64,000 bases of DNA, from NCBI GenBank assembly GCA_900128395.1, contig LT649237.1:1-64000 (forward strand), written 5' to 3'. The notes below the pieces were generated by a model. That model searched no databases and was not told where the DNA came from. It saw only the letters and a program-made list of their open reading frames with translations. Within the stretch, counting starts at the first letter, position 1, and every line of letters starts with the position of its first letter. The position numbers were made by a program, and so were the translations under genes. Below, one piece after another: positions 684 through 54,300 of this stretch. The stretch is from Stramenopiles sp. TOSAG23-2. Its lineage: Eukaryota.

Positions 684-2520
684 TTATTTTTTGTCACACT
701 CTTCTTTGTGTCCATTTTCCCAGTGTTTGATTTGGCAGAATTTATTACAATACTCACACTGCTGGCATCTAGCACATAAACTTTTTTTTATAGTATTTGA
801 TATGCCACACCCAGCACACGTGCTGAGGGGGGAATGAAAGATCTGAATGATTTTATCATGATACTTTGTATTTTTTGTAGATGCTACCTCTAGAAACGTT
901 TTACGCTGGGCTTCAAAATTTGACTTTCCAGCCCTAGCAGCCTTCTCTACTTCTTCATTCGTACATGCACCCTGCTTGATTAACCATTGTACACAATCCA
1001 AATGTCCCCAATAAGCTGCAGCATTGATTGGTGTCCAAATAGCATTCGTATTATGACCATGATCAATATCAGGGGCGCCTCCATACTTCTGAATCAGCTT
1101 TAATACAGGAAGACTACCCCCAGTAACAGCTATAAAAAAAGGAGATATTTCATCACTTCCTCCTGAATCGGGAAATAATTTTTTTACATCTGCTTTAGCA
1201 CCATAATCTAGTACCAACTTGACCATCTTTGCATTACCAGAATTAATCGCTTGAAAAAGGGGTATACGGGTAGCCCCCTTCCTGTGAGAATGTATCATAA
1301 ACTGCTTATCTAAAGGCGGTGCAACAAAATTATTCGAACCGTTTTCTTCATATAAAAAATTTAATACATCCAACCTATTTTCTTGAATAGCTTTAAGGAC
1401 AGGGGACACATCTGCCAAGTTGTATTTATCAGCACCACCACCTTGGTTGTAAAGATATTTTATTATTTCTATTGGACTCTTGCATATACTGTTTAAAAGT
1501 GCTGTTCTTCCATCAAAGCTAGGAACCAAAATGGTCTCCCGCCCACCATGATCGCATATCCATTTTATAACATCTAAGCTCAAACCAGAGCATACAGCGT
1601 TATTTAGTGGGTTTAATCCTTGACCAACTTCCTGTTCCACCCACCTCGTATCATTAACACCATGCAAAAATAACCATTCTAACAACTCTATGCTGTCACA
1701 TGTTAAACTTATATGTGCCAGCGAATAAGCTTTCGGACGTGCTATTTCAACAAAATCATCTTTTGAAATTATATTAGTGTCCCAGAGTTTTTGTAATTTA
1801 TTCACAAGAATTTTACCAGTGTTTTTCTTTTCCTGACTGAAAATGTCTTTACGTTGTAAAATAGTTTGAACAACAATATCTGATAGGACATCGTAACCAC
1901 GAGTGCTATCTTCAAGCTTGTCAAAAATTTTCCTTGCAGCATCCGACTTTTCCTTTGCAAGTTTTTTGAGCTGTTTCTTTTTTGCACGTGCAATTTTTTT
2001 GGGCATAAGTTTCTCATCAAACTTATGAAACATATCTTTCTTTATTGATTTATAAGAGGTTTTTTTAAACAATTCATCAACTAAGCCATCAAGCGTTTTT
2101 TTCTTTTTTCTTTTTATTATTTGTTGTTGTACTACTGGTACATAATTTTTTACATGCGTTTTTATGACCCTTTTTCCATGCATTCGTTTGGCATGACTTA
2201 CTACAGTAATATGTAACTTTACAACGTGAACATCGAAACATTTTACTAGATGTTTTTGCACAGTAGCCACACACTTTTGGCATTTTTTTATCTGCTTTTG
2301 ATGCTTTGTGATTATTCTCAACACAATAATTTTGCGCTTCCTTTATTAAACGTTCCTTCTCTTTGATTTGATTTTTCTTAAAAGTCTCATTATTGTAATC
2401 TGCACCACCACTTTGCATAGCATTCCATGTTGCCAACTGTTGTTTTGCAATTGGATTCCCTTGCTCGGCCGCTTTTTCCAACCAACGTCTTGCTTCGTGG
2501 TGTAACTCTGGTAACCCCAT
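684..2520 (-). CDS. Sel1-like/zf-MYND/ankyrin-repeat/zf-MYND protein, interrupted by a 1-nt frameshift near 2095-2115; true 5' end uncertain
   Basis: ORF 2089-2520 has a Sel1-like helix pair (EARRWLEKAAEQGNPIAKQQL) and a MYND finger (CGYC..CSRCKVTYYCSKSCQTNAWKKGHKNAC). The overlapping ORF 684-2324 has about 7 ankyrin-like repeats (e.g. TPINAAAYWGHLDCVQWLIKQGA) and a C-terminal MYND (CAGC..CARCQQCEYCNKFCQIKHWENGHKEEC). The frames switch in an A-rich run. Confidence 0.75.
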
Positions 2521-2864
2521 TTTAGCTAAAAAATACGCATAGGCTTGCTGGCAATCAATTTTTTTAATTTTTTATTGATCTCCAAATCTACTTCCTATCA
2601 AATATTTACAGTATATAATAGTTAAAGTGCACAACAACAATTTAAATTATTATTTTTTTTTTGAAAATTTACCTGTAATAATTAAGGACATTTTAATTTT
2701 ATTATTGTGCTATTCTAATGCTATTTATATATATTATTTTGAAATTATTATTGGTGCATTGTTGTGCTATTATTAAAATTTCGTCTAAATATATATTAAT
2801 ATATTGAAAAAAAAAGATAGAAAGAGACGAGGAATAATATATATTATGTATAAACAATCTAACA

Positions 2865-3110
2865 CTTTTTCGATTTTGTGCCTTTCTTATATATATATGT
2901 GTGTGTGTATTAAAATATATTAATATGTCAAATAAAAGAAAAAGAGGCAATGATAGTACTGGTGGTGGACAAGTCCTACCAGAAGGACTTTTTCGATTTT
3001 GTGCCTTTCTTATATATATATGTGTGTGTGTATTAAAATATATTAATATGTCAAATAAAAGAAAAAGAGGCAATGATAGTACTGGTGGTGGACAAGTCCT
3101 ACCAGAAGGA
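2865..3110 (+). repeat. Perfect 123-bp tandem duplication (2865-2987 and 2988-3110) spanning a 5' UTR and start codon
   Basis: The unit ctttttcgattttgtgcc...gtcctaccagaagga occurs twice head to tail. The period is 123 nt = 41 codons. Confidence 0.95.
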
Positions 3111-3749
3111 GGGGAAAGTAGAAGGAGTAAGAGGAGGAGCGGTGGAAGTACAATTGATAAAGAGGAACTGGAAACACAACGCTGTTGGGGTATATATCTT
3201 AAACCAACAGGGTGGAGATATGTAGCTGGAAATCTCCAAGATCACATATTTATCCCTAGTTCCTTGAAACAATACAGCACTAGAATCATAAAGAAATATG
3301 GGACAAACGGAATACATTATTTTAATGGGTATATTGGGTTGAAAGACCAGTTTATTGAAAAAAAGTTTGCTGGTGTTGTTGGTTTGAACACACCCGATAA
3401 AATTATTGATAATATGAAAGAATGGTTCAAAGTTGCATATGAGATGGCAGCATATGCTCCACCGCCAACTGCTGAAATGAAAAGGTCATTGTTATTGAAT
3501 AACACATCCCATGCATCCACCATGACCATGGTACCTGCAGTTGCTTCAAGCAGTAGTGGAATAAGTGAAGCAACAGTTAAAGATACATGTAGTTATTGTA
3601 ATAAGGATGTAACTACTCTACATTATAGAATTGGTACAACATCAAATAGATATATGCACTCCGGGTGTTACTTTAAAGAAAAATTAAATCAATCAGAGGA
3701 GGAGAATAAACATTTAAAAGCTGAATTAAAAAATCACTGGAAGAAATAA
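2925..3749 (+). CDS. Hypothetical protein, probably nuclear (basic N-terminus, C-terminal CxxC...HxxC putative zinc finger and coiled coil); alternative ATG at 3048
   Basis: Open frame beginning MSNKRKRG (NLS-like), with CSYCNK...YMHSGC near the C-terminus. No family recognised. Confidence 0.6.
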   Translation: MSNKRKRGNDSTGGGQVLPEGLFRFCAFLIYICVCVLKYINMSNKRKRGNDSTGGGQVLPEGGESRRSKRRSGGSTIDKEELETQRCWGIYLKPTGWRYVAGNLQDHIFIPSSLKQYSTRIIKKYGTNGIHYFNGYIGLKDQFIEKKFAGVVGLNTPDKIIDNMKEWFKVAYEMAAYAPPPTAEMKRSLLLNNTSHASTMTMVPAVASSSSGISEATVKDTCSYCNKDVTTLHYRIGTTSNRYMHSGCYFKEKLNQSEEENKHLKAELKNHWKK

Positions 3750-8447: not shown

Positions 8448-9686
8448 ATGACCATGGAAATAGCAATTATTGGATATGAAGGATGTGAATATCATATGTC
8501 TGCAATTGAAACAGCACATGCAGCTGGCATCAAAGCTATTGTAAAAACTGTGCCAAATCCAGAAGAATTTCAACGTTTTCTTATGTCAATAAAAGCAACA
8601 ACCCATCGTACTTCACCTATTGTTTTTGATATCACTGCTACTACTGCAGTGTCAGGTGTTAATATAAATATGGAGAGTCTTCTAGGCGCTACGCTTATTG
8701 GTGGATGTGATGAATTAAAGCAAAAACTTGGATATGCAACAACAGCAGAGGAACAACAAATGGCACGTCAAATCGATACATCGTCGCGTTCACCTGATGA
8801 AATAGCATCATTCTTTCATACAACACAACGTAGTCATCGCTTTGTATTGTGGGTTTTATGGCGTGGTGTTTGGTGACCTCCATGTCAGCAGTCGCTTCGT
8901 GGATATAATCGACTGCTGGATGATGTCCATAATGCAGGCGGTGAAATTATTGGGATTACCTCTGCACCACAAAGTCAAGCCGATACTGCTGCTAAAGAAT
9001 GGGGAATAAATTTTCCACTAGTGTCCGACCCTTCCTGTGAACTTGTTCTTGCCATGAATCGTAACGGTTGGATCAACAGTGTAGTTGAAATGGATGAATC
9101 GCGTACATCATCTGAAAGTTATTTTGTTCAACAAATTGGTACACAATATGAAATTGGAATGTTGCAGCCTGGTGTTGTTGCCCTGCAAGGCGAGATCGAT
9201 GTCTATAACGACAAAGCAACTAATGAAGATAGAAAAGTTCTTGTAACGTGGGGTTCAATTCCAACACTGGATAATGCTAAGGGTGCTGCTGGAAGATTAC
9301 ATCCACGTGATGCGTGGAGTGCGGTTAAACGGAGCCTTGATGGTGATTTTTCACTTGCTAGACCAGAAACTATTCAAGGTAAAATTCCAATCAATCCTAT
9401 CGTCTTTTGTATGATGCTTATGGCAAATGGTAATTTTATCATGCCTAAAACATTTACAAATGATGTTAATACTGGCCGTGGAGCAGATATTAAAAGGCAA
9501 AGTGCCATGAGAAAAGGATTTCTTGCTCTAGGTGCTTTAGGCTTTGGTGCTGTAAAAGCTCCGAAGCAGACATCTGCACTTCTTGCAGCTTACTTATCAT
9601 ATTTTTTTTTGACACCAGGTGGTCCAGGACAAGTCTTATATACCACTCTTTTTGCTGAATCGAAGGCTGGTACCAGCAAGCTATAA
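8448..9686 (+). CDS. Selenoprotein: glutaredoxin-like domain + AhpC/TSA (peroxiredoxin-like) domain with UxxC, C-terminal SKL; 412 aa, Sec at codon 143 (TGA 8874-8876)
   Basis: Reading through TGA 8874 gives 48 stop-free codons in frame with ORF 9021-9686: VLWRGVW-U-PPCQQSLRGYNRLLDDVHNAGGEIIGITS...WGINFPLVSDP. This is a typical AhpC/TSA pattern (RGxWCPxC ... lxFPlvSDP). The N-terminus has Grx motifs GCEYH, TSPIVF and LIGGCDEL. A SECIS is present downstream. Confidence 0.9.
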
Positions 9687-9890
9687 AGATTCAACATATA
9701 TATATATATCACAAAATGTATATATATATATATATATAGATAAATGTATAAATGTAAGATGGATTACTCAAACATAGTACTTTTTTCAAATTTTTTTACA
9801 TAATTTTTTGAGAGAGAGATAGAATTTTTGTTCTTTAAATATAGTATCACACACAACAAAAACAACAACAATAAACATGTTGCGTAAAAA

Positions 9891-9955
9891 TACATATGAC
9901 GTACACTGCTACAAAATCTTGATAGTTATAGGATGTAGTAATGTACCGAGAAATA
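9891..9955 (+). promoter_or_regulatory. SECIS element (type II) in the 3' UTR of the selenoprotein
   Basis: ATGAC (9896-9900) and CGAG (9947-9950) form the non-canonical core with tandem G.A pairs. Helix II GTACACTGCTACA (9901-9913) pairs with TGTAGTAATGTAC (9934-9946) at 12 of 13 positions. AAA is unpaired at 9914-9916, followed by an apical ministem TCTTG...TAGGA. Confidence 0.9.
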
Positions 9956-10437
9956 TTAATTGTTGTTTAATTTTAAATAATACGATATCGTATGATATGC
10001 ATATCATAAATCGTAAATATATAACGCGTATGAATATTTTTTTTATGATAATATTATTGGTTAAAATCTAAGTTATAATAGTTTTACTTCTCATTGGCCG
10101 TATCAAAATTATTTTTGTTTTATTTTTTCTTTAATTTAATATCTCGCACCATATATCATTATATTATGTACGAAGTATTATATTATGGTGTATTATTATG
10201 CGTTTTGGTGATAAATGTTCTCTCTTTCTCTCTCAATTTCTTACTCTCCGCGAATTTTGCAATATACGTAACTATTTTTTTTTATTAGTTTAATATTTTG
10301 CAAAACAAATGAATGAAATATGTGTGAATCTAATATATACATGATGTGTATTATATTATTATTATATTAATATAATATTCAAATCATAATATGAAATGTG
10401 GAGCTGATCCAAGTTATTGATATCATTATCATAACAA

Positions 10438-24187: not shown

Positions 24188-25549
24188 TTATGCCTCTTCG
24201 AAGAAACTATCAGGCACATTTGCACCAATCAATTTACTCAATACGAAATCTACCATTTCTTCAGCATCACGTTCTCCATCATATTCGTCTGGAACGACAT
24301 CTTTTACATTACCTGGCATATATGCAAATGTTGGAAACTTTTGAATATTAAAATCTTGACATAATTGTTCCTCCATGTCACAATCAACGGCGCCAAAAAC
24401 GGTACCTTTGAAATCAACATCCTTCCCTGCATTACCACCCGTTGATGCTAATGCAAATGTTGGTTTTACCTCGGTGCAATGTGTACACCATGGCGCATAA
24501 AACATTAAAAATAAACTTGATCGTGGATCACGTCTACTGCCAAAATTATCATTTGTAATTTTAACAACCTTACCAGAATTTTCTTTCGTTCCCCATGCTG
24601 GTAAATTTAAATTCATACTAGTAACATCTTCGTTACTACTCTTTTCTTTTGGCTTCGTCGGTCCCATTTTACTTGCTACGAATTTCGATAAGCGTGTAAC
24701 TGTAACTCTTCCTTCAAATTCAATACCAATTTTATTTTTATAAAACATAAATGTTGGATATCCATCTATTGCTTCTTCTTGACATAATGCTTTTTCAAGT
24801 TCACAATTTACAGCAATTGCTGATGGCAATGGTGAAAGTATCTCTGTTTGTTGTTGATTTTTTTTTAACAATTCATCCGCAAATGCTGAATAAATTGGTT
24901 GTGATAATTTTGACATTTCACACCATGGTGCATAAAACATAATCATTGCGCCATCTTCACGACTTCTTTTATTTTCTTCACCTGTCCATTCGTTGGTGTT
25001 GATATGTGTCACTGCGCCTTCAAATCCACCTTTTGGTAACATACTATCTTTTCCACGACTTGAAAATAGTCTACGAGGACTTGCAATGTTTTCTCCTCCT
25101 GCCGCCACCTCATTTTCTTGTAAATCTTGCTGTTGCCCCTCCTCCATTCTTTCCTCTTCTTCTTTCAATGAATCTAAATTAGCTTGTTTCATTCTCATAT
25201 CTTTTATATTTTGTAAATATGATACATAATCATCTTTACTTTTGCAGCCATTGCATACAATACCGAGTTCCTGTAATAGTCCTTTGACTTGGCCTAAGCG
25301 TAATGTTTTCAAATCTACATTTTGTATTGGATCATCCACACGTTCTGTAATTTGTGCTGATATAAACGTATCAAAATCCGTTAAAGTACGCGGTCCACCA
25401 TATGAAACAACTTCATCTAAACTATCTGAAAAATAATAAAAGGTTGGATATCCATCAATTTGATACTCATAACATAATCGTTGTTCTGCTTCACAATCTA
25501 TGCGTACATATATCCTCTCGTATATCTGCTCTTCTATTTCTTCACTCAA
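24188..25549 (-). CDS. Protein disulfide isomerase-like protein (three thioredoxin domains plus an ARMET/MANF-C-like SAP domain); 5' end incomplete
   Basis: FYAPWCTHC and FYAPWCEMS active-site regions, plus three copies of the (I/V)(D/N)C....LC....IxxxPTF motif. The ORF begins at TTG in mid-domain, just after an in-frame stop, so an upstream exon is missing. Confidence 0.8.
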   Translation of the reverse strand: MSEEIEEQIYERIYVRIDCEAEQRLCYEYQIDGYPTFYYFSDSLDEVVSYGGPRTLTDFDTFISAQITERVDDPIQNVDLKTLRLGQVKGLLQELGIVCNGCKSKDDYVSYLQNIKDMRMKQANLDSLKEEEERMEEGQQQDLQENEVAAGGENIASPRRLFSSRGKDSMLPKGGFEGAVTHINTNEWTGEENKRSREDGAMIMFYAPWCEMSKLSQPIYSAFADELLKKNQQQTEILSPLPSAIAVNCELEKALCQEEAIDGYPTFMFYKNKIGIEFEGRVTVTRLSKFVASKMGPTKPKEKSSNEDVTSMNLNLPAWGTKENSGKVVKITNDNFGSRRDPRSSLFLMFYAPWCTHCTEVKPTFALASTGGNAGKDVDFKGTVFGAVDCDMEEQLCQDFNIQKFPTFAYMPGNVKDVVPDEYDGERDAEEMVDFVLSKLIGANVPDSFFEEA

Positions 25550-39388: not shown

Positions 39389-42300
39389 ATGTCGCATTCA
39401 ACTACCTCGAAACGAAAGACATTAAAGAGTAAATCCACTAGAAATAATAATAGTTCAAAAGGACCTGCTACTGATGTTCCTCCACATAAAAATATACCGT
39501 CTCACTTGAAATATCCCAATTATCGCAAAGTTGATGAGGCAACTGTTTTAGCTATGGCAGAAGGGACGCATTCAAAAAGTGACTTAAGAAAAACAAAGCC
39601 AAGTTTAATGTTAAAAGACTTACGTGCTACAAGGGATCCAGCTGAAGATGGGGAATTGGTACGACCAGCTCCGCCAGAGATATTGGAGTTTTTAAATATT
39701 GAAGATTACAGTGCACAGAAACAATGCACCGTGCCGTTGGAATATCCACTTTTTCAACCATATCCAGCAGATTTAGTGTTTCGTAATTTTGAACCGTTTG
39801 GCACATACCATCAAAGACTTTATTTTCGCAATAACGACTCGTTTGCAAGACGTGTACGTATATTGTCGCCAGACTCTCCATTCTTCACCGTAAGGCCTGT
39901 ATTTGATGATCCTTCTTTAGCCGTTCCAAAAAATGGTAAAGTTGCAGCTGGTATGGAAGTTTGCTACATCGTTACCTTTCGACCTAGAGAGAAACGTGAT
40001 TATAATTATAGTTTAATATGTGTTACGGAACGTGAAAAATTTGCTGTTCCAGTACGAGCTATTGGTACGAGGGCGTGTTTAGACTTTCCAGATAATGTTG
40101 AAATGGGAATGGCGCCAGTGAAACATACGGCAACAAAAACTTTTTTAGTGCGTAATGTTGGTGAGAAAGCAACTAAATTTGCTTTATCTGCGAGCCAACC
40201 ATTTGATGTAGAACCAAGAAATGGTTTTGTTGCACAAGGTGCTAGTATACAAGTAACTGTTATGTTCACTCCAGATGTTGCACGTTCATATGAAGGAGAA
40301 ATGACATTGGAATATGAAAATGGACAAGTAGCCGTTGTTGGACTTACCGGGGACGCACAAAATATCAATGTGCATCTAGGATCTCAAATTGTTGAAATTG
40401 ATCCTGCATACATATCATTATCATCCCAAAAAACTGTGAAAGTTTATAATCGTAGTGGTGTTCCAGTACAATTTAGTTGGAAAGCATTTGGCGCGACGGA
40501 GGAAGAGCAACATGAAAGGAACAGATTGCACAATGAGTTAAATCGCATGGAAGAGATGGAACGACGCCATTTAGATTCTCAACATTTTGAAGATGAAGAT
40601 GGGGATGAAGATGATTATAGTGAAGACGAAGGGAACAATATGCCAGCAGCAAAACGACGTGAAATTGCAGCATTGTCACGTAAATATAAACATTTAAGGC
40701 GTGCAGTGCAAGAAGATTCATTATTATTTGCAGATGAAAATTTCTCAATAGAGCCTATTCAAGGAGAAGTGTGGGCAAATAGTGAATTGGAATTCACGAT
40801 TACTTTTTCCCCAGAACAAGCTGCTGATTATGCATGTGTTGCATTCTTATCAACCACTGGTAGGGAACAATGCTTGCCATTGAAAATCCAAGCAACTGGT
40901 ATTGGTCCACAAGCATCTTTTACCTACGATGTGTTAGATATAGGTGATGTGTTTGTTAATAGTGTTCATACATACGAGCTTGTGATGGAAAATAGCGGTG
41001 AAATCGATGCGGAATACGATTTACAACCATCCGATACGCCATTTGGTCCTAAATTTAAATTTTCACCTGAATCTGGTAAATTAGCCGTAGGTGAAGCGCA
41101 TAAAATTGAAGTTAGTTTTTGCTCAGAAATTCTTGGAGAATTTTCTGAACATTTTCATTACAGTTTAAAAGGCAGTCAAATTCCTCTTAGCGTACATTTC
41201 AAAGGTCATGTAGTAGGCCCAACTTTTCATTTTAATGTGGAAGACATTGATTTTGGCATTGTTTCGTATGAATTTGTCAATAACCGAAGCTTAACTTTGT
41301 ATAATACTAGTGAAATTCCAATGACATATACGTTAAGAGTACCTCAAGATGGCAAATTTCTTCAAAAAGAGTTTGACATCAACCCATCAAGTGGAACTAT
41401 CGTTCCGGATGGTAAGGTGGACATCCAAGTTGATTTCATTTCAACAACTGTTAGAGTTTATGAAATGTATTTAACAGTAGATGTTGAAAACGTAGGCGAA
41501 GGATTGCTTTCCATTCCTATTAAAGCAGAGTGCCGATTACCAGACGTAACGTTGGGATCTGAGGAAATTGAATATGGATCATGCTTTTTAAGATATCCAT
41601 ATGTAAAAACATTGGAATTAATTAATGACAGTGATCAAAAAGCAAGGTATGAATTCTTACCGCAAGAGGAGCATACGATGATACTTGGGACGTATGAAAC
41701 GGAAGAGACAAAAGGTACCATTGATGCGAGAAGTCGTGTTGAAGTACCAATAACTCTTACATGTGAAAAATTAGGCAAAGTAAATCTTCCAATGTTTGTT
41801 AAAATATCAGGCCAAGAAAGGCCACCAATGAATATTGCATTAAATGCAAATGCAACAGGTCCAAATGTAATCTTAGATCAAAACGATGGAATCAACTGGG
41901 GGCCAACAACATGTTTAATACCATCCACCAGAGAATTAAAAGTAACAAATGATTCTCTTATTCCAGCTCCATTCCGCACATTTATGAAAACCCAAGGTTC
42001 TGTTTTCTCCGTTGATTTAAACGAAGGTATGTTAGCACCAGGTGAAAGTGTTGTTTTGAAGATTACTGCTAAACTTGATGATACGATTGTTCATAAAGAT
42101 CAATTACAAATCATAGTACATGAAGGTGGAAATATCATTGTTCCATTGGTAGCCAAAGGGGAAGGTACTACACTATCATGTGATGATGATATCTCCTTTA
42201 TCGAATATGATTATCAATTTACCAGCGTTACCTGTGAAAAAAGATTCTTCATTAAAAATTTAGGAAGGCGTGCGCAAGATATCACATGGGTAAATAAAAC

Positions 42301-45300
42301 TGTAAAAGAAAATGATGAAAAAGCACAAACGGAGTTTATACATGCTATGCGTGAATTTAAAGAGAAAGGTGATGATAAAAAGAAAAAGAAAAAGAGAAAG
42401 GCGCCAGTTGAGCCAAGTCCATCAACCGCAGTGTTCACAGTGGAGCCGGAAACAGTTACTTTAAAACCTAATACAGGTTGTGAATTTAGTTTTTATGGCA
42501 ACACGCCGTTAACTGATAATTTCTTAGAGGAATTAATATGTGAAATTAAACAAGGAAAAGAAAAAAATGGCCGTCCAATGTTGTCTTGCAAATGCCATGG
42601 TATTTTCATTAACCCCGTGCTTGAACCTTCTGTAAAAGAATTATCGTACGTATATACGTGGCGGGATGGCATGCCATTGACTCAACAAATTCAACCTATT
42701 ACATTAAGAAACGTTGCTGAATTGCCATTAGATTTTGTTTTGCGTACTCAATTACCATTTAGTATCGATACGTACGAATTTAAATTAATGCCTAATGAAA
42801 CGACTACAGTAAATGTTTCATTTGATCCTGGCTACAGAGACGATCGTGTTTCCCACGTAGCTGAAAGTGCCCTTACTGCTGTTTATAGAGATCACCCTAA
42901 ACGTGATTCCATTCCATTAATTGGGGAAATCAACTTTCCAAATTTACAATTCGATTACACTACTGTTGATTTTGGTACCGTCTTAAACGATACCACGCAA
43001 ACGGTTAGCGTCAAAGTTACCAATATTAGTAAAATTGATACAGATTTAAGCTGGACATTTGAAGCTGATGAAGAAGCTGCACGCAAAAAAGCTACAGCTG
43101 CGCGTCCATATATTCCTGTCAATCAGGTATATGACGTTCTTCCTATTCGTAGTTTGTTGCGTCCTGGTGAAACGGAAGTTGTTGAATTTGCGTTTTACGG
43201 CCATGCAAATCGTAAATTCCGCACTACGGCTGTTGGTATAGTTCAAGGAGGACCAGAATATCCTGTTGTATTGCAAGGGGAAGCATCGACGATAGCACAT
43301 AGAATGGATCAGTCATATCTAGATTTTGGAAAGGTTCCATATGACGTGGAAGATGAAGTGAAAGAATTTAATATTATTAACCCAGGACGCGTACCTTTTG
43401 ATTACCGTTTGCGCCTTGATGAACTTTCACGACCGGATATTATAGTAGCTCAGCCAACTAGTGGCAGAGTATATGCAGGAGACAAACAAAAAATTACCAT
43501 TAAATTTATGCCAGGTGTTCCAGATAGAATTATGGAGCAAGTAAAAGTAGATATTGCCCATTTTGAACCAATTTTGTTCCCAATATATGGACATGGTATC
43601 TTTACAAATGTTTTTGTTCAGCTTCCACGGGAAGATGCTGATGATGAAGTTTGGTTAGCAACATTAGAGGAAGCTCGAAGAGCGATTGAGGGGGCTAAGA
43701 ATGGAGAGACTATGGAAAATCAACCACCACTTCCACCTGCAATAGTTCCACCATCCCAAGATGGTTCTCGTCCAGATACTAAGCAATCAACATTGACAAC
43801 AGGCCGTAAAATGATAGCACAGCGAGGAAAAGATGCCGGTGTTGAAAATAGTGGCGAATCTGGACCACCAAAAACTGCTCCTGCAATGTTAGCAATACCT
43901 ATTACATCCAGAAAAGCTTCTGTTGAAACTGTTGATGAGGATCAACTTCCACCAGCAGAAAAAGACGAAGCAATAGCCATTCAAAATGAGGCAAATCGTA
44001 TTGTTTTTATGAGATATTTGTTAAAACAATTAGAAAATAATGCAAGGGCATTTGATATGGAAAATGACGGGTATGAAGATGATGATGGCGATGATCCATT
44101 TTCTGATACAAAATCAAAAACATCAAAGACTTCTAAATCCAATGTACAAGTTCCAAAATTACCAATTGCTGTAGTTGAAGCCCCTAGTAAAAATGCAATG
44201 TCAAAAGCAAAGCCGATTGAAACGGAAGATGGTGGATTATTAACTGTTAGAAGTCAATTTACACCGGATTTTGTTCTAGCAAAATACGTGTGTGATTTTG
44301 GTCATGTAGTAGCTGGTACCGTGCGCAAAAAGAAATTTGTAGTTTCAAATACTGGATATCTTCCTGTAACATTTACCATCGATTCCGGTGGTGCTTCGTC
44401 GAAAGGGTTCCATATGGACCCAGAAAAAGTTAAGAATGTTCCTGAAGGTGAGGATATTAATTTCAAAGTTACATTTAAATCAAAACGTAGTCGATTAGGT
44501 CCAATTCAAGTAGAAGTTCCAATATTTTTGAAAGATGGTCCAGCTATTGTCTTAATCTTAAAAGCTAATGTGACAATACCAGACGTATCTGTTACTCCAG
44601 AGCAAGGTATTGACTTTGGTACAGTTCTATTGGGCAGAACTAAGATTATCAATTTCCAATTGAAAAATTTAGCTCCTGTTCCTACAACTTGGAGCCGTGC
44701 AAAACAAACGAAAAATGCTCAAGACGAAAACTATTTTATATGTACACCAGATGTTGGGACATTAGCGCCAGGAGAAGCGCAAAATATTCAAATACATTTC
44801 ACACCAACTGGCAATCGTTCATATGAATTTAAATTGCCAGTTAAGATTGTTTCAAATCCTAGAGTCAAAACGATTGATTTGAAAGGTCAAGGTAAGGAAT
44901 TGTCCATTATGTTTACACCGTCAAGAGTCAGCCAAGTCCCTGTATTACCATTCGCAGATCCAACTTCTGTTATTGTTAATGCAATCAATGAAAACGATTA
45001 TGACGTTGAATTTTATAGTCTAGATTTTGATACCCAATATGGGGAAGAAGAGAAAGTATTGCGAGAAATAGATGAAGCGATTTGGACTGGTCATATTCAT
45101 GGTGATAGTGTTGTAAAGGGATTGAGTAATTACAATTCTACAATGGTTGTTGAACCTAGAAATGTTGGCGGCGGTTTGCCAGAGAAAGTTTTAGAAAGCA
45201 AAGCTAGAAAGGAGAGAAAGCAACTTCGCAGGGAAAAGCGTGCTGCAAGAGAAGCAAAACGTAAAGCCCGCGAAGAGGCTGTTAAAAAAGCAGAAGAAGA

Positions 45301-48300
45301 AGGTACTGATCCACCAGCTGAGGAGGAAGACGCGGGTGAAGAGGAGAATTTAGATAGCACCGACGATGAACAAGGTGAAGTTGGTGAATTGGAAGTTGAA
45401 GAAATCCCACCAACAAAACGGGAGGAAGGCTTAGCATTAGATGTAGTGTTCCATGGTGCTCCATTTACAAGTTCGGAGGATATTGCTAGAAAATATGCAA
45501 ACGAAATGGGTTTCTTCCCATTAAATCTAGATGAAGTAGTTCAAGAAGCTATTGATAATAATACATTGGGTGGGCGTGCAGCGAAAGAAAAGCTTGGATA
45601 TTCCCCTGAAGGAGAAAAACCGGATGAAATTGAAGATTATACGCTATCAAATGAGCTTTTAATAGCTATTTTACGTGATCGTGTAAATAGTCGTGAATGT
45701 GGAGATGGTGTTGTAATTGTTTCGCTTCAAAGTAAATATGCGAATGAAGTAGAAATCGCTAAAGCTGTGAAAGATGCTTTGTCTACGGAAGCCGTAGTGC
45801 CGGCACTGGAAGAAGAAGGAGGAGGAGAGAAGGCAGAAGATGCAGTCGAAGAGCCTGTAGAGGTTCCTTTACTAGAACAAGCCGTGAAAGATGCAAGTAA
45901 GCTAAAAGTAAAATCAGGAGATTTACGCCTTATCAACTTTACCTCTACGAGTGAAGATGAATTTGCTGAGTACATCAATAATCGTCGCCTAGCCTTAATA
46001 GAGGCCTCAAAAGAACCAGAAGTAGTTGAAGAAGAGGGGGCAGATACCACAGAGGCTGAAGGTGAGAAAGAAGAAAAAAATGATGAAGAAGTTCCTGCCG
46101 AGTTTGATAAAGATCCATTTGAAGAATTGTCTGAGGAAGATATTATGAAAATGTCTGACGAGGAAAGGGCCGATTATGAGAAGGAAAAGAAGAAGAACGA
46201 TGATATGAAAGCTAAAGAGGCTCGTGAATTTGCTTCAAATTTATTGATCAAGTTGGAATCTACACTTAAATCAGTTGGTGAGGATTTACAAAAAACTGAT
46301 GAAGAAGTTGCAGAGATGGATGAGGATGCACAAGCAGAATATTGTAAAACAAGAGGTAAAGCATTATATGGAAGTGCAACACAAAATGTAGATGAAATCA
46401 AAGTGACCTTTGGTTTTGTTGCTGAAGTAGAAACAATCGAGGGAGAATTTGTCGAACTATCAGAGGAAGAAGTTGAAGCATTGTCGGAAGAAGAGAAAAC
46501 AGCATATTTGGCTAAAAAAGAAGCATTAAATGCGGAAACGGCTGGAGAAGAAAAGGATGAAGATGACGAAGACGAGGAAGATGAAGGGGAAGAAAAGGAG
46601 GAAGTGGAAAATTCAGAAGAAAAGGTTGAAGCAAAAGAGGGAGATGCTGAAGAGACTACGGAAGAAGCAACTGAAGAAGAGGAAGCGAAAGTTGAAGAAA
46701 AAGTCGAATTCGTCCTGAATGTGTTGGTCGGTGGTGAATCAACTGAGGATTCGTTATATGATGATTTCTCCAATGTGATTCCTTCGCCGCCTGAACCACC
46801 AGAGTTCGTCCTTCCAATTCCAGATCCAATTGAAAATCAAATTTTGATCAAACCTCATGAACGTAAACAGCGGAGAAAAATTAATTCTTTCAAAATTGTT
46901 ACAATCAGTAAACCATTTAAAATTGGTGAAACTGATACTTTCAAAGAATTAAGCGAGGAGGACATTGCCAATTTAGAAGATGATGCAAAAGCGAATTATG
47001 AAGCTGAAGTGCAAGAAAGACAAGCTTTGAAATCTGCTTCTCGTTGGATCTTGCCTGCAAAGTCACAAATGTCATTAGCCATTGAATTTGCTTCGAAACA
47101 AACTGGTAAGAGTAATTCTATATTGGACTTTGAAATAGTTGGCAATACTAGAACATTTTCCGTGTCAGCTGATGGTGTGTGCGCTGTACCAGCTATTAAC
47201 AAACAACCTATGGTCGTATTTACAAGACGTGCTAGAGGCAGACCGCCTATTGAAAAAGTGCATAAACGTTACGTAGATGGGCGCTCTGCATATGAATTTG
47301 GCCCATTGTTAATTAACAAACCTAGAAGCCTTATAGATGATATTAAAGCAGAGTTTGAAGGAATGGATGCAGATGCGGAGGAAAAGGTAAAGGTGGCGCA
47401 AACGATGGCAATGTTTGACAAACTTTCTAAATTAGACAATGCTGATACATTAAATATTTCAAATAGTGGTGTTTTTGATACTCGTGTTGACTTTACGTTC
47501 AAAGTTGGGGATAATGAGGCACCTTCTCCATTTGTCGTGTGGCCACCATTTATTGAATTGCCTCAAGGGGAAACCAAACAAGTTTCCATATGGGCGTTCC
47601 CTGAAACGGCAGAGCTGCATGAAGATACGTTGGTTTGCAGCATTCAAGATAATCCAGCTGTAGAAACATTCCCAATTGCATGTTTAGGTGCAACTCCAAT
47701 GATTGAAATTCATGGTCCATGGGAGAAAATGCAAAAAGAAGCCAAAGAGGAAGGGGAAGAGGGAGAAGATGCTCCGAGTGGTCCTATTATTGATTTCGAT
47801 AGATTGTTATTGAAGCGTAGAGAGGCAAAAGACTTTTCCATTAAAAATACTAGCTCGATTCCAGTCGCATGGAGACTTAAATTGAGTGATAATTTGATGA
47901 ATAGAAGCGAATTTGAAGTTGGGCCAAGGGAAGGTGTCCTAGCACCAGAAGGTGTGGAATATGTTACCATTAACTTCGAAGCTGTTGAGCCATTTAAATT
48001 TGATGCAGAAAATATAATTATTGAATATTCTGATACTGAAGGTGGCTTGCCTACAGTTGAGGAGCAGGAAGGTGGAGCAGAAGGCCGTATTGAATCTACT
48101 AATATTGACGTACGTGCAGAAGCTTATGATATTAAATTCGTGATTCCGGAATTTGGTAAAACTGCACCAAGCAAACCAGGTAAGAAAGTGGAAGAACTTG
48201 TTGAACCAGTTTCAGATGAAGAAATGGCTGAATTAGAAGGTGGTGTACTGAATTTTGGTGCATTGAGAGTATTTGAACAGGCAGAAAAAACATTTACATT

Positions 48301-51300
48301 GCGCAATGCGGGAGATTATCAAATACGATTTGAATTTGAAATACGAAGACGCTCATCCGCAAAATTATTTTCTATTACTCCAGAAAATGGTGTTTTAGAT
48401 AGTGAAGGCGAAGTTCAAATTACATTGACGTTTAACTCGGAAGCTGAAGTTAACTTGAAAAACAATAAAGACATACGTTGTAGTATTTATGAACCAAAAA
48501 CTGATGAATTTTTTGAAAGCTTTGATCTTACAACAACAGTACGATCACTTTTCTCTACTTTCCGTTTACAACCATTACGTGGTGTCAATTTCAGTGCTGT
48601 GAAATTCGGACAAACCGTGACCCGCATGATTGAACTAAGGAATGACGGTGAATTTGATTTTGTTTTTAGAATTGTAGATGTAAAAGCAGATGACGTAAAA
48701 ATTGCCGATGAAAACAAAGAAGCGCAAGAAAAAGGCGAAGAAGCAGTTACAGAATTGAAAAAAGCAAGAGAAGATGAACAAAAATTATGGCTAAGCAATT
48801 TATTAAATCCGGATGATGTTCTGAATGATGCTCCTCTAAAAACTGGGCCATTTACGATTGAACCGGCGAATGGTGTTGTTCACCCTGGATCTACTGCGAG
48901 AGTGACGTTGAATTTTGATGCTGAGGGTAATCAATTGTACAGAACTCCACTTCGTTTTGATATTTCTGGCCGTGCGTCAACTAATGCATCTGGTCGTTCC
49001 TTTGAAGTCGTTGGGGAAAGTTGCATTCCTGGTATCGATACGAAAACATTCGAGTCAATATTTGAGGAACAGTCTGTTGTGCCACGCCTTGAATTCAATG
49101 AAGTGGAGATGGATGATCCAGATTACTTGGATGGACCAAAACGCATTGCTATGTTTGCTGAGGAAAATAAAATATTTTCATTTGGTGCTGTTGTACCATC
49201 TCAAGCCCCAAAATTGGGTGTCGCTGAACGTTTCAAAATTTCAAATCATAATAAAATCAAGTGCGTCGTAAATTTTGAGTTATCCATGCAAGGTGTGGAT
49301 GAAGGTAAGACAGCGGATGATGGTGCGGCGTTTAAAGTTCAACCGTCAAGTATTGAACTTCCTCCTCATGAACATCGTTACATAACAGTTTATTTCAAAC
49401 CAACTGAAATGCGATCGTACACGGCAGCGTTTGAAGCAAATGTTGAAGATGGTACAGAGCCGCAAACAAAACAGCTACGTTTTGATTTAACTGGGGAAGG
49501 TACTTTACCATGCGTCACTGTTGAAAATCCAACATCAGTTGATGCAGATGGAGCGTTGTTGATTGATTATTCAAGAGCTAGAGCTGGAAAATCGAAATCT
49601 CAAACCATAGTTTTGAGAAATGCAGGTACCGTCCCAGCAACTTTGTATTTTGATATGGAATTGAATAAAGCATTTTCTTTCCCATCAAGAGGACATTCAA
49701 TCACACTTCCACCTCGTGCAACTGAAACACACACGGTAATCTTCAGTCCACCAAATGCACAGGAAGAACCATTTGAAGGCATGATCAAAATGACTGTAAT
49801 GCAAAATGAATATGAATCTACTCGTATCCGTTTGCGTGGCGTCGGGTATTTGGAAGATTTATCCATAGAAGGTCTTCCAGGTGGTAGCTCAGATGAAATT
49901 GACTTTGGTCAATTAGATGTGCTTCCAAATGCAAACGGTAAACAAGTTAGTTTCTCCTTACAAAATGACCAAGCTGAAGTTCAGCGCTATGAATTTCCAG
50001 AACACGATGATTTCAAATTCGTACCATCTGTTGGTCATATTTATCCAGGCCAACGAGCGGAGATTATTGCCGAATTTCTTCCGGCTGCAGTACGTGCACT
50101 TAGTGCTGATATGGGTGAAGAAGGTGGAGAAGAAGCAGAGGAAACGCCATTTGAAGCAATTAAACATTCCAAGGTACCAATACAAATACAAGTCACTAAA
50201 ATTGAGCATAAAGGTAAAAAAGTTGGTGAAAAAGATGAAGAAGCCATTGCTGCAATGTCTGAGGAAGAAAAGGCAGCATACGAAGCAGCTATGGAAAAAG
50301 CACCTATGGAAACTGTGCCAGTATGGGATAATTCCCAAAGATCTGTTGTCTACAACGATGAAGGCGAAAAATCTGAAGAAATTGCACCAGAGCCAGAGCA
50401 TGAAGTATTAGGTGATGCAAAAGAAATTGTACTTAATGTAACAGGTTGTGCAGATGTCGTAAGGTACGAATGTGCGACTAATCAAATTGTTTTCCGTCCA
50501 ACAATGATGTTCCAAACAAGAGGTTATAAATTCACGGTTAATAATACGGGTGGCAACACAATATCTTATGATTGGGCATTAAAAAATAAAAATATCAAAG
50601 GAAGCACGTTGCAGCTAGGCAAAGCTGATCTGGATAAAGGTCCTGCATCTATTGATTGTCCATTTAAATTTACACCGCAACGTGGCAACATACAAGCTGG
50701 TGCAAGTGAAACATTTGTTGTAAGATTTGCACCTATGGAAGTGCCTGTTACGATGGGTGGCGTATTTAATTATGAAGCAAGGGCAAGTATTGAAAATTTG
50801 CCATTCGGTACTAACGATTTAATGCTTGATATTCGTGGTGCAGCACAGCGTCCGGTTTGTCACTTTGAATTACCTGGCTCGGATTATTTAGAAAGACGCC
50901 CTGCTGACATGCCAGGTCCAAGCGGCAATATTGGTCCATTAGATCCTTCCATTAAAGTTATTTTCTTTGAATCGTTGGGTACAAATATTAAAAATACACT
51001 TCGTTTCAAAGTTATTAATCCAACAAATATGGGATATGACTTCATGTGGGAAGCTATTGGAAATCCACATCCTGCATTTAATAATGCAATTAAGAGCGGT
51101 ACAGTGCTTCCAGGTAGACGACATGAGCAGATTTTTGAATACACACCTAGTAAAAATGATATTAGTGGTTTCCAAGAGTCATTTTTCAGATTCATGATCC
51201 CAAAACAGGGCGTGGATCAATTATTTTTGATTGCAGGTACAGTTGTAGATCCACGAGTAACATTAGACCGTACATTTGTTAACTTCGGTAGTATTTTACT

Positions 51301-54300
51301 TGGAAATCCAGGTACAGAAATTGTGAACTTTATTAACAGGGAAGATTTACCATTTGCATTTAATTTCGATCGCAATGTTCTTAGACCAAGAGGTGGCAAA
51401 ACGGTTATGTCAATTGAACCAATGAGTGGTGTAGTTCCGGCAAATTCGAAATTGCCATTGAAAATTGTGTTCGATCCAGCCGATGAAAAACCTGAAAATT
51501 TAAGTGTTAGCTGCTTAGTGCGTCGTAAACCAACAAAATTGTCATTAAATTTGAAAGGAGAGGGTGCTGGAGTACACGATACCTTGACATTGTTTGACGA
51601 TAGTAGTGAAGGTGATGATAATGGACTACCACAAGGTGTGGAATTAGCTCCAACTGGTGTGAACTACGTTGACTTTGGACAAGTACATATTAATGATACT
51701 GTTTACAAACGTGTTGTCATACATAACTCTGGCAAATTCAATTTAGATTTCCGATGGAAAAAACCAAAGAATCCTCAAGTCAAAATTGAACCGTTGCAAG
51801 GCATGGTGCGTATTGGGGATCGTCTTGAAGTTAAGATTTCATACCATCCAATCAATGAACAACCATTGGGTGGTATTAAATGTTCCTGTGATGTCGCTGG
51901 AACTCATAAATACAATTTAAGTATCAACGGTCGTGGTGCAAAACCAATGCTTGATTTCTCCTTTATTGAACACAACTTCGGCCCATGCTTTGTTCCTGAG
52001 CGTGGTGGTGCGCCAATGGCAGAAACGACTATGTTACGTTTAACCAATAACGAGTTTGAAAATGACGTTGCGTTTGATTGCTTATTCGAGAAAACGCCAC
52101 ATCTGGAAGTTAAAACCCAGCCGACCATGCTTCGTCCAAACGAATCTATTGATATTCCAATTATCTTTACAGCAAGAGAGGTGAAGCAATACAATGAGAT
52201 TATTAAATTTGAATTGAATGGTCTATACACAGTTAATGTGATAATTAAAGGAGAAGGTTGCTTATTGAAAGTAGAACTTGCAAACCCAACGCAGTCATTA
52301 GTTGCACTAGGATCCTTACGTGTTGGACAAGAAGCTACTAGAAAGGTATTGTTGGTGAATAAGTCAAAACGGGCAGCGTTATTTACGTTGGAAGATGTTG
52401 TTGAAGCTGGGCATGGGCGCTTGGAAGAAAGGGCTGTTACGTTCTTCCCTCGTGGAGAAGTATTAATAGGGGCCAGATCTAAAACAAACATAGAAATAAG
52501 ATTTAACCCATTGAAACGTTTATCTCCATTTAAAGAAGATTTGAACTTGTCTGTAGTTGGGAGTAAACGTAAACTTCTTACCATTACTGGATCATGTCAA
52601 GGAATTGAAGTTACATTGGAATCGGATGCTGTGCCATTTGGTAGTATTTGCGAAGGGTGCCGTATATCAAAGAAATTGCAGATGGAAAATTCAGGAGATC
52701 TTGGTACGAAATTCAAATGGGACAATAGCTCCTTCGGGCCAGACTTTTCCATTTCGCCAGCGGAAGGATTCCTTGCGCCACATTCTGGAGTGGTTTTTGA
52801 AGTTATGTTCCATCCTACACGTGTATTCGATGACTTTAGACGAGATCGACTTATGTGTATGGTTGACGGTGCCCCACCATTGTTTTTAACTTTATCTGGT
52901 GCATGTGAAAGACAGCCATCTGACAATATTAAAGAAATGGAATTCAATGCGCGTGTACGTGAAGTTGAGAAACAAAGCATCACAATTAATAATCCAACTA
53001 ATTCAACATGGGTTATTAAACCGGCAATTACAAATAATTATTGGAGTGGCGATACACATCTTCGTATTGAAGCCAAGTCAAGTGGTGATTATGAAATAGC
53101 ATATAAACCACTGACGATGACGCTACCTCAAACGAAAACGGAGACAAACGAGGAGGGTGAGGAAGTGACAAGTGAACCGTTCACTGTACGCCATGAAGGT
53201 TCAGTATTCTTTCCTTTACCAGATGGCACGGCATTGCTGTACAATTTACTTGGTACAGCGGATGAGCCGGCAGAGCAAGATAATTTCGAGAAAACTGCTG
53301 CAGCGAAGGAGAAAATGATATTCGAATTCCCAGTCAAGAATTGGTTAAAGAAAGCACAGCGATTCCGTGTAGAATGGGATGATGATAATGATAGATTCAG
53401 AGGTGGACAAACGTTGGATGTTCCTGCGAATGGTTTAAGAACTTATAAACTAAGTTTCTTTGGACTGAAAGAAGGAGAATCTTTTGAGACCAAAGTTACA
53501 TTTACTAATCCGGAGAGTGGCGAGTATGTATTTTACAACATCAAAGCAAATGTCACTGCGCCAATTATCATGGGTAAAGTGAAGATGAATGCACCTGTAC
53601 GGCAAACCATGCAGCATGTCTTGTCTATTGAAAATCCATTGTCGATGGATAAGGAAGTGACATTTGAGGAAGGTACATGGTGGACATGCGAGGATCCATG
53701 TGTACGTGTACGTCGTTTGGGTGAAATGACTGGAAATCCAGAGTGCAATTTCGAAGTTGAGTTCCGTCCACTTGTTGCTATTTCTGAACCTAAAGAGGTT
53801 AGATTAACCATACAATCGGTTGAGTTGGGCGATTATCACTATACATTGATATTGACTAGCGAAGCAGCTGCAAGTGAGCGCGCTTTGCAATTTAAGGCAT
53901 CACTCGGTTCATCCCATGTACAAACATTCCGCTTCAAAAATATGGTACAAGAGCCAACGGAATACAAATGTATTTGTGGTAATCCAGATGCATTTGAAAT
54001 GGAAGAGAAAATTATGGCACCAGCTGCCGAAGATTGGGAAGGAACGGATGTTGAAGTATCAATATCTTTCGAACCGATCGCGCTTGGAGAAGTTCGTGAC
54101 ACATTACGTATTGTATCCGATGTTGGTGGCGAATTCGTATGCTCGCTTTACGGAAATGGTGTTGCACCACGTCCACAAGGTCCATTTATGATCGCTCCAG
54201 GTGAAACCACATCCATTGAATTCAAAAACGTTTTCAACGAGGCTCGTGAATTTTCGTTTGTTGTCGATAATCCATTGTTTAGTGTTAATGTAGCATCACA

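Follow-up and report, generated by a model that had tools for sequence, protein, structure and literature searches.

A candidate peroxisomal selenoprotein with a conserved targeting-type C-terminus in a marine protist

A stretch of 64,000 nucleotides from Stramenopiles sp. TOSAG23-2 (contig LT649237.1, positions 1 to 64,000), referred to here as the window, was analysed for an intronless gene of 410 codons at 8454-9686 of the forward (+) strand, on which all features of the gene given below also lie. The frame is continuous apart from a single in-frame TGA, translated as selenocysteine (Sec, U), and the encoded protein ends in Ser-Lys-Leu (SKL), which is a peroxisomal targeting signal of type 1 (PTS1) in form. 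Judged by its sequence and that of its relatives, the product qualifies well as a candidate natural selenoprotein of the peroxisome in a marine protist, and the putative address is kept in most of the eukaryotic relatives. The explanation that was modestly favoured is that of a thiol oxidoreductase selenoprotein which PEX5 addresses to peroxisomes and which is associated with a membrane there. Sec oxidoreductases of this type are known; new are the architecture, with a glutaredoxin fusion and a hairpin tail, and the conserved putative peroxisomal address, which had gone unremarked.

The C-terminus was read directly from the codons GCT GAA TCG AAG GCT GGT ACC AGC AAG CTA TAA. The reading agrees with the end AESKAGTSKL-stop given in an earlier account of this DNA made from the letters alone (the preliminary description), and places the tripeptide at 9675-9683 and the TAA at 9684-9686. 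The tripeptide matches (S/A/C)-(K/R/H)-(L/M), which is the PTS1 consensus given for diatoms in the available passages of PMC3178647, where a green fluorescent protein carrying SKL was imported into peroxisomes. An alternative upstream ATG is present at 8448 besides the ATG at 8454, and the frame is open from either.

The relatives of the protein were collected by protein searches and by a metagenome scan. A word-based protein search returned 7 relatives, each a fragment of 227-274 residues starting just past the TGA. An exhaustive search returned 257 proteins at E up to 0.001, which included many post-TGA halves as well as N-terminal halves ending exactly at ...W-R-G-x-W. All 7 relatives of the word-based search and most of the close matches of the exhaustive one are TGA-split halves, because gene callers stopped at the TGA, and the targeting signal therefore falls on an unannotated fragment. 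The metagenome scan gave 21 loci (L001-L021), 17 of them eukaryote-like and 4 bacterial-like, with L001 identical in sequence to the window gene. Public models of the window gene (P0009, P0010, P0013, P0015 and P0055; 92-100% identical) are likewise fragments split at the TGA and are not annotated as a selenoprotein; one public model of 96 residues fuses the N-terminus straight to the last 30 residues.

The preliminary description had proposed that orthologues be checked for SKL-like ends, and such ends were found to be conserved. When translated through to the stop, 15 of the 17 eukaryote-like loci end in [SAP][KR][LM]: the end is SKL in L001-L008, L014 and L020, PKL in L009 and L012, SKM in L010, AKL in L013 and SRL in L016. 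The exceptions are L011 (YTE) and L015 (KKN), the latter being a variant of L012. None of the 4 bacterial-like loci ends in this way (e.g. ...EGEPG), and among 155 database proteins 25 end in [SAPC][KRH][LMI]. The bacterial-like relatives (L017 at 2162-3301, L018, L019 and L021) are high in GC, L017 having 71% GC and a zinc-dehydrogenase neighbour. They show a different N-terminal region and a strongly hydrophobic two-helix tail with no PTS1-like end.

The distribution of the signal was plotted on a tree of 51 rows built with the last 12 residues removed, comprising the window protein, 16 loci and those 34 of the 155 proteins whose sequence extends into the tail; the duplicates or fragments L001, L003, L007, L015 and L021 were not used. 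In the well-supported clade of the window protein 20 of 23 rows end in [SAPC][KRH][LMI], and in the bacterial-like clade none of 11 rows carries the signal, though the hairpin is shared. The PTS1 label required 7 changes on the tree against a mean of 17.3 for shuffled labels, and none of 500 shuffles was as low. The set contains near-copies (L014/P0028, L010/P0011, L002/L004 and L011/P0016), which lowers the number of independent rows. The codons of the tripeptide differ synonymously between the loci (AGC, AGT or TCC for Ser; AAG or AAA for Lys; CTA, CTG, CTC or TTG for Leu) over coding sequences with a GC fraction of 0.41-0.72, which points to selection on the peptide in diverse organisms.

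The surroundings of the tripeptide were also considered. A short helix (residues 391-400 in the model) is followed by a spacer (together 9624-9674) that is variable in length and sequence between orthologues. Residues 405-408, which run into the SKL (residues 408-410), have a predicted local distance difference test score (pLDDT) below 50 and the end is therefore probably exposed. At the other terminus, only 0-13 residues precede the first beta-strand in the full-length orthologues, too few for a signal or transit peptide. As a separate observation, a short AhpC-TSA protein of 165 aa (P0067) with W-C-G-F-C is without the hairpin tail, yet ends in SKL.

The in-frame TGA (U141, 8874-8876) stands in the context R-G-V-W-U-P-P-C. 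The TGA of W-U-P-P-C is kept in all the loci covering the site, namely the eukaryote-like L002-L014 and L016 and the bacterial-like L017-L019, in which it occurs in F-W-U-P-P-C. In most of 76 matched stretches of distant homologues the position of U141 is the first Cys of WCxxC, and in a few it is W or another residue. The distant homologues P0061, P0102, P0113 and P0134 have W at this position (R-G-x-W-W-x-x-C), which may be a TGA called as Trp by the gene caller and hence mark further Sec forms. Reassignment of TGA to an ordinary amino acid was rejected. TGA is still an ordinary stop in the window, terminating 4 of 16 other long open reading frames (ORFs), some of which ends may be exon ends.

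A hairpin resembling a selenocysteine insertion sequence (SECIS) was found at 9891-9957, 210 nt past the stop codon. It consists of ATGA at 9896-9899, a helix of 12-13 bp, an AAAA, a mini-stem and a GA at 9948-9949. Hairpins of the same layout occur in the 3' untranslated regions (UTRs) of 9 other loci (L002/L003, L005, L008, L010, L012/L015, L013, L014, L016 and L020). In the alignment of the 10 hairpins the ATGA is invariant and compensatory change is seen in 11 of 14 consensus pairs. A first ungapped scan detected the hairpins of the window/L001, L012/L015, L013 and L020 only, and a looser ungapped scan added none; the remaining hairpins, which contain a bulge of one base, were recognised on inspection of the UTRs. 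The 3' UTR of L011 gave no convincing SECIS-like hairpin. For L004, L006 and L007 less than 35 nt of 3' UTR was available, and L009 ends within a possible ATGAC core. The stretch from the stop codon to the SECIS-like hairpin contains TA-rich simple repeats at 9692-9753 and 9847-9880.

Metatranscriptome runs (polyA or cDNA) from four studies yielded single contigs that span 8392/8414 to 9680/9691 with the TGA unchanged. Together with the conservation of the TGA, the Cys of distant homologues and the SECIS-like hairpins, these TGA-bridging contigs make the selenoprotein proposed in the preliminary description credible. The Sec reading of the TGA is well supported but not proven.

The N-terminal part of the protein (residues 1-105, 8454-8768) forms a glutaredoxin (Grx) fold. 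The AlphaFold (AF2) model of this part shows a beta-alpha-beta-alpha-beta-beta-alpha order with a pLDDT of 88.6; the domain was modelled alone for the fold and its folded residues are 1-94. The model of the whole protein was built from an alignment of 38 rows and has a mean pLDDT of 90.7. In VIA-align the N-terminal domain came closest to that of MDH1B (9d2f_F), at Z 11.5 with 20% identity over 90 aligned residues. Matches to glutaredoxins ranged over Z 7.2-8.9, with Z 8.9 for the Grx domain of the Haemophilus influenzae hybrid Prx5 (1nm3_B; root mean square deviation 2.3, 72 residues), Z 8.2 for T4 Grx and Z 7.6-8.1 for plant and human glutaredoxins. These structural matches bear out the Grx nature assigned to this part in the preliminary description.

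Besides their fold, glutaredoxins are marked by a Cys of the active site at helix 1, by a cis-Pro loop and by a GG motif. The N-terminal domain has the fold, Cys11, T-S-P55 and G83-G84, and the residues C11, H51, S54, P55, G83 and G84, thus including T-S-P55 and GG, are invariant in 13 sequences. The invariant Cys11 (8484-8486) lies in G-Y-x-G-C-x-Y-H, which reads G-Y-E-G-C-E-Y-H in the window. Its motif C-E-Y-H is monothiol and not the dithiol C-P-Y-C. Pfam gave no Glutaredoxin match for the domain, only a weak DUF7391 (E 0.0032-0.062, below the cut-off), and a monothiol Grx-fold domain of its own family is therefore indicated. The sequence profile of the domain gave nothing significant against the PDB, the best match being the N-terminal domain of MDH1B at E 0.099, with which C-x-Y-Y and H-R-T-S-P are shared.

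The loci L002 (1405-2655), L003 and L004 (51-1283) have a second in-frame TGA at the Cys11 codon, in G-Y-A-G-U-S-Y-H. Two Sec residues served by one SECIS-like hairpin are predicted for these loci from their sequences, and the replacement of the Cys11 codon by TGA marks Cys11 as a redox-active residue. Short forms without the Grx domain are also present in the family, namely L013 (38-895, ending in AKL) and L014 (36-881, ending in SKL). L011 (36-953, ending in YTE) probably lacks the domain too, as about 12 upstream in-frame residues show no Grx sequence.

The middle of the protein (residues ~114-298, 8793-9347) is a thioredoxin-fold oxidoreductase domain of the AhpC/TSA-Redoxin superfamily. 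Pfam matched residues 131-199 (P0001 numbering) to AhpC-TSA at E 1.4e-10 and to Redoxin at E 3.6e-9. The closest sequence-profile match in the PDB was ResA (E 9e-6), in which W-U-P-P-C aligns with W-C-E/P-P/H-C. VIA-align matched the domain to BcpB (5epf, BCP/PrxQ-type) at Z 14.3, to PGFS/PRXL2B (9us9) at Z 12.1 and to ResA (2f9s) at Z 10.6, and was clearer than Foldseek against the PDB, which gave only modest peroxiredoxin (Prx) or ResA matches (E about 1e-4). A protein-atlas search with the database fragment P0004 gave AhpC/TSA-like leads below threshold (scores 0.81-0.84). In the model U141 sits at the N-terminus of helix 142-152, as in the ResA/TlpA-type W-C-x-x-C layout. The canonical Prx motif is P-x-x-x-T/S-x-x-C with a peroxidatic Cys; an active site of this kind was rejected for R-G-V-W-U-P-P-C, which has no T/S three residues before U. 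By fold and Pfam the middle domain is in the AhpC/TSA superfamily, but it is not a canonical Prx as judged from its sequence.

The most conserved hydrophobic helix of the family follows the middle domain, with the motif P-I-V-F-C-M-M-L-M-A-N-G-N-F-I-M-P at 9396-9443 (helix 315-325 in the model). In the family form L-M-A-N-G-N-F-x-x-P two residues never vary (G327 and F329), and three others, A325, N328 and P332, hardly do (P0001 numbering). The Kyte-Doolittle maximum over 19 residues (KD19) of the whole protein, 1.45, falls on residues 312-330 in the same numbering. Beyond it lies an Ala/Gly-rich helical hairpin (9483-9611; helices 344-368 and 370-386 with a conserved Pro at the joint), which forms a block with a pLDDT of 94-98 in the AF2 model and lies about 25 residues upstream of the SKL. 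The hydrophobic stretch that the preliminary description had noticed before the SKL is present, with the runs GFLALGALGFGAV (about 9514-9552) and ALLAAYLSYFFL (about 9577-9612); part of the stretch lies upstream of the start given there.

The two helices of the hairpin have a positive mean hydrophobicity, a low hydrophobic moment (0.1-0.3) and an Ala/Gly-rich composition. The KD19 maximum of the tail is 0.96 in the window protein, 0.96-2.34 in the PTS1-bearing relatives and 2.2-2.56 in the bacterial-like relatives. A transmembrane helix is usually expected to hold a Kyte-Doolittle mean of 1.6 or more over about 19 residues. With a KD19 of 0.96 and hydrophobic runs of only 12-13 residues, the window protein therefore has no classical transmembrane helix. 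The tail may be an ancestral monotopic membrane hairpin that keeps the C-terminus on the side of the catalytic domains.

The following account of Sec insertion, delivery by PEX5, location and topology in the peroxisome, electron donor and substrate is inferred from these features. The protein would be made in the cytosol as a two-domain thiol/selenol oxidoreductase with no N-terminal presequence. PEX5 would read the SKL as a working PTS1 and bring the finished, folded protein to peroxisomes, where the hairpin would hold it at the membrane; the catalytic domains would then face the same side as the C-terminus, most likely the matrix. The substrate reduced by the U-x-x-C centre would be either a disulfide or a peroxide, the latter perhaps a lipid hydroperoxide at the membrane. 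The monothiol Grx-like domain (Cys11) would recycle the selenenylsulfide of the U141-P-P-C144 domain and would itself be reduced by glutathione.

Several points weigh against this proposal. PEX5, and even peroxisomes, are assumed for this organism. The hairpins of the SECIS alignment were picked by hand and by eye after a motif scan, a choice which favours structure. Rfam returned no SECIS for the 3' UTR of the window gene or for 11 loci, only chance-level rows of microRNA and small nucleolar RNA, and the single-sequence folding energy of the window hairpin is ordinary (z -0.16). The contigs from RNA libraries are not proof of transcription; they end at the TA repeat before the SECIS-like hairpin, leaving 9703-10007 uncovered, and are therefore uninformative on the 3' UTR and the SECIS. 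As for the address, 3 of the 23 rows of the window clade are without the signal (L011 and P0016, which are one gene, and P0014), and the pattern is seen in only 6 of 17 rows of the eukaryote-like clades that are intermediate or more distant, where near-variants such as RKL, KKL and SRF occur. The hairpin beside the PTS1 could hide the signal or direct the protein to a different membrane, and several orthologue tails have a KD19 above 1.6-2.0.

The last of these points leads to the alternative that survives best, which was nevertheless considered rather unlikely. According to it the hairpin dominates targeting and anchors the protein on the cytosolic side of the endoplasmic reticulum, of lipid droplets, of the mitochondrial outer membrane or on the outer face of the peroxisome, the SKL being weak, masked or auxiliary and the protein not a matrix protein. 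The hairpin is ancestral and, in the bacterial relatives, which carry no PTS1, membrane-like (KD19 2.2-2.56), and the low hydrophobic moment and the Ala/Gly-rich composition of the helices also agree with an anchor, as do the KD19 values of 2.0-2.3 in some eukaryote-like orthologues. A paralogous eukaryote-like clade has a polybasic run together with a PTS1-like end (P0020, P0085, P0080, P0034 and P0076, with RRRRRAKL, RRRRAAKL, RKKRKL, KKKKL and RRSKM). Polybasic tails such as RRRRRAKL and KKKKL, which speak for the anchor, resemble peroxisomal tail-anchor signals. Against this, a tripeptide without function would not persist through synonymous codon turnover in 20 of the 23 rows of the window's clade. 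The window tail, at a KD19 of 0.96, is also well under the usual transmembrane threshold, and its two hydrophobic runs comprise just 12-13 residues each.

A selected switch, in which selenium supply toggles between a cytosolic Grx-only product ended at the UGA and a peroxisomal full-length enzyme, was judged improbable. Part of the idea, as put forward in the preliminary description, holds: by sequence only the UGA read-through product carries the SKL, and the truncated product would hold a complete Grx-fold domain. The length of 142 aa given for that product is correct from the ATG at 8448; from the ATG at 8454 it is 140 aa. On the other side, the extra TGA of L002-L004 lies at the Grx active site, and termination there leaves about 20 residues, while L013 and L014, and probably L011, are without the Grx domain, so that no Grx-only product is possible. 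With the early Sec in L002-L004 and no Grx domain in L013/L014, a conserved truncated isoform is therefore impossible family-wide. Truncated selenoprotein products are, besides, usually by-products that get degraded, which was counted against the switch. Selenium-switched activity and localisation by way of a Grx-only isoform is consequently not supported as a conserved function.

It is very improbable that the S-K-L is kept for another reason or stands there by chance: SKL and SRL do fit the class I PDZ-type ligand pattern (S/T-x-hydrophobic-COOH), but PKL (L009, L012, P0006 and P0008) and AKL (L013 and P0020) do not, all variants keep a basic residue at position -1 and a terminal L or M as in the PTS1 pattern, and chance was rejected on the clustering of the label on the tree (0 of 500 shuffles as low).

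The peroxisomal membrane oxidoreductase proposed here was compared with known systems. In architecture the nearest precedent is the Prx-Grx hybrid of H. influenzae (1nm3), a fusion of a Prx fold and a Grx in which both domains were matched (Z 12.6 for residues 114-296 and Z 8.9 for residues 1-93). It differs in the reversed order of its domains and in being bacterial and soluble, with Cys and no targeting tail. The closest cell-biological precedents are PMP20 of Candida boidinii and PRDX5 of mammals, which are also thioredoxin-fold thiol peroxidases and use C-terminal PTS1 signals. The middle domain matched human PRDX5 at Z 11.2 and Ahp1 of Saccharomyces cerevisiae at Z 13.1 by VIA-align. These peroxidases differ from the window protein in having Cys and not Sec, a Prx active site and not WUxxC, no Grx domain and no hairpin tail. 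According to the passages available from PMC10565873, PMP20 and PRDX5 are found in peroxisomes of yeasts and mammals, and PMP20 uses glutathione.

The ResA/TlpA/DsbE oxidoreductases share with the window protein the top PDB sequence match, the W-C-x-P-C context and the fold (Z 9-10.6). They are extracytoplasmic and have N-terminal anchors, whereas the tail of the window protein is C-terminal and Sec takes the place of Cys. The radial-spoke protein MDH1B shares the fold of the N-terminal domain (9d2f chain F) and differs in its ciliary context.

AhpC-like UxxC selenoproteins are described in Monosiga, Emiliania, sponges and bacteria in the passages at hand of PMC3753652, and in protists, sponges, fungi and bacteria in those of PMC3753652, PMC7539508, 10.1101/314781 and PMC2375036 taken together. 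An 'AhpC_b' of Thalassiosira oceanica is stated to have only prokaryotic Cys homologues (excerpts of PMC7539508), and peroxiredoxin and thioredoxin-fold selenoproteins are listed for Thalassiosira and Ostreococcus (excerpts of PMC2375036). As far as these excerpts go, the window protein resembles the AhpC-like UxxC selenoproteins in its AhpC/TSA Pfam domain, in the Sec placed first in UxxC, and in having Cys forms, bacterial relatives and an occurrence in marine protists. The passages of PMC3753652 and PMC7539508 mention no Grx fusion and no hydrophobic tail, and the window protein may or may not be of the same family as AhpC_b or the AhpC-like proteins of PMC3753652. The term 'Peroxisom' is absent from the texts of PMC7539508, 10.1101/314781 and PMC2375036, and was not searched in PMC3753652. 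Full-text literature searches for natural selenoproteins that carry a PTS1 or reside in peroxisomes returned none, only papers on readthrough, reviews and unrelated papers.

Peroxisomes make much hydrogen peroxide, and how the protein thiols and peroxiredoxins in them stay reduced is an open question. In the passages available from PMC10565873 it is left open whether any glutaredoxin-like protein resides in the mammalian peroxisomal matrix, no membrane redox relay has been found there, and a thiol-disulfide/lipid-hydroperoxide reductase activity has not been identified in mammalian peroxisomes. A Grx-plus-UxxC selenoprotein with a conserved PTS1 is a concrete candidate for peroxisomal redox maintenance and, if the assignment is true, peroxisomes would join the compartments served by selenium. 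A wider proposal, possible rather than probable and put forward tentatively, is that the gene belongs to the first natural peroxisomal selenoprotein family. Such a family would be widespread in marine protists and would join a glutathione-fed Grx-like domain to a Sec-x-x-Cys domain, both kept at the peroxisomal membrane by a monotopic hairpin that comes from bacterial membrane enzymes, and with a PTS1 added in eukaryotes. It would act as a peroxisomal thiol-disulfide/lipid-hydroperoxide reductase.

The neighbours of the gene in the window are ordinary eukaryotic genes in long intronless ORFs, including those for eIF3c, a choline-transporter-like protein and alanyl-tRNA synthetase, and the GC fraction of the surroundings is about 0.30-0.41. 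Another redox gene lies 15 kb away on the reverse (-) strand, an ORF of 453 codons at 24188-25549 in which Pfam matches a thioredoxin domain at E 1.2e-34 and, weakly, OST3/OST6. One unbroken ORF of 5023 codons occupies 39389-54460 on the + strand.

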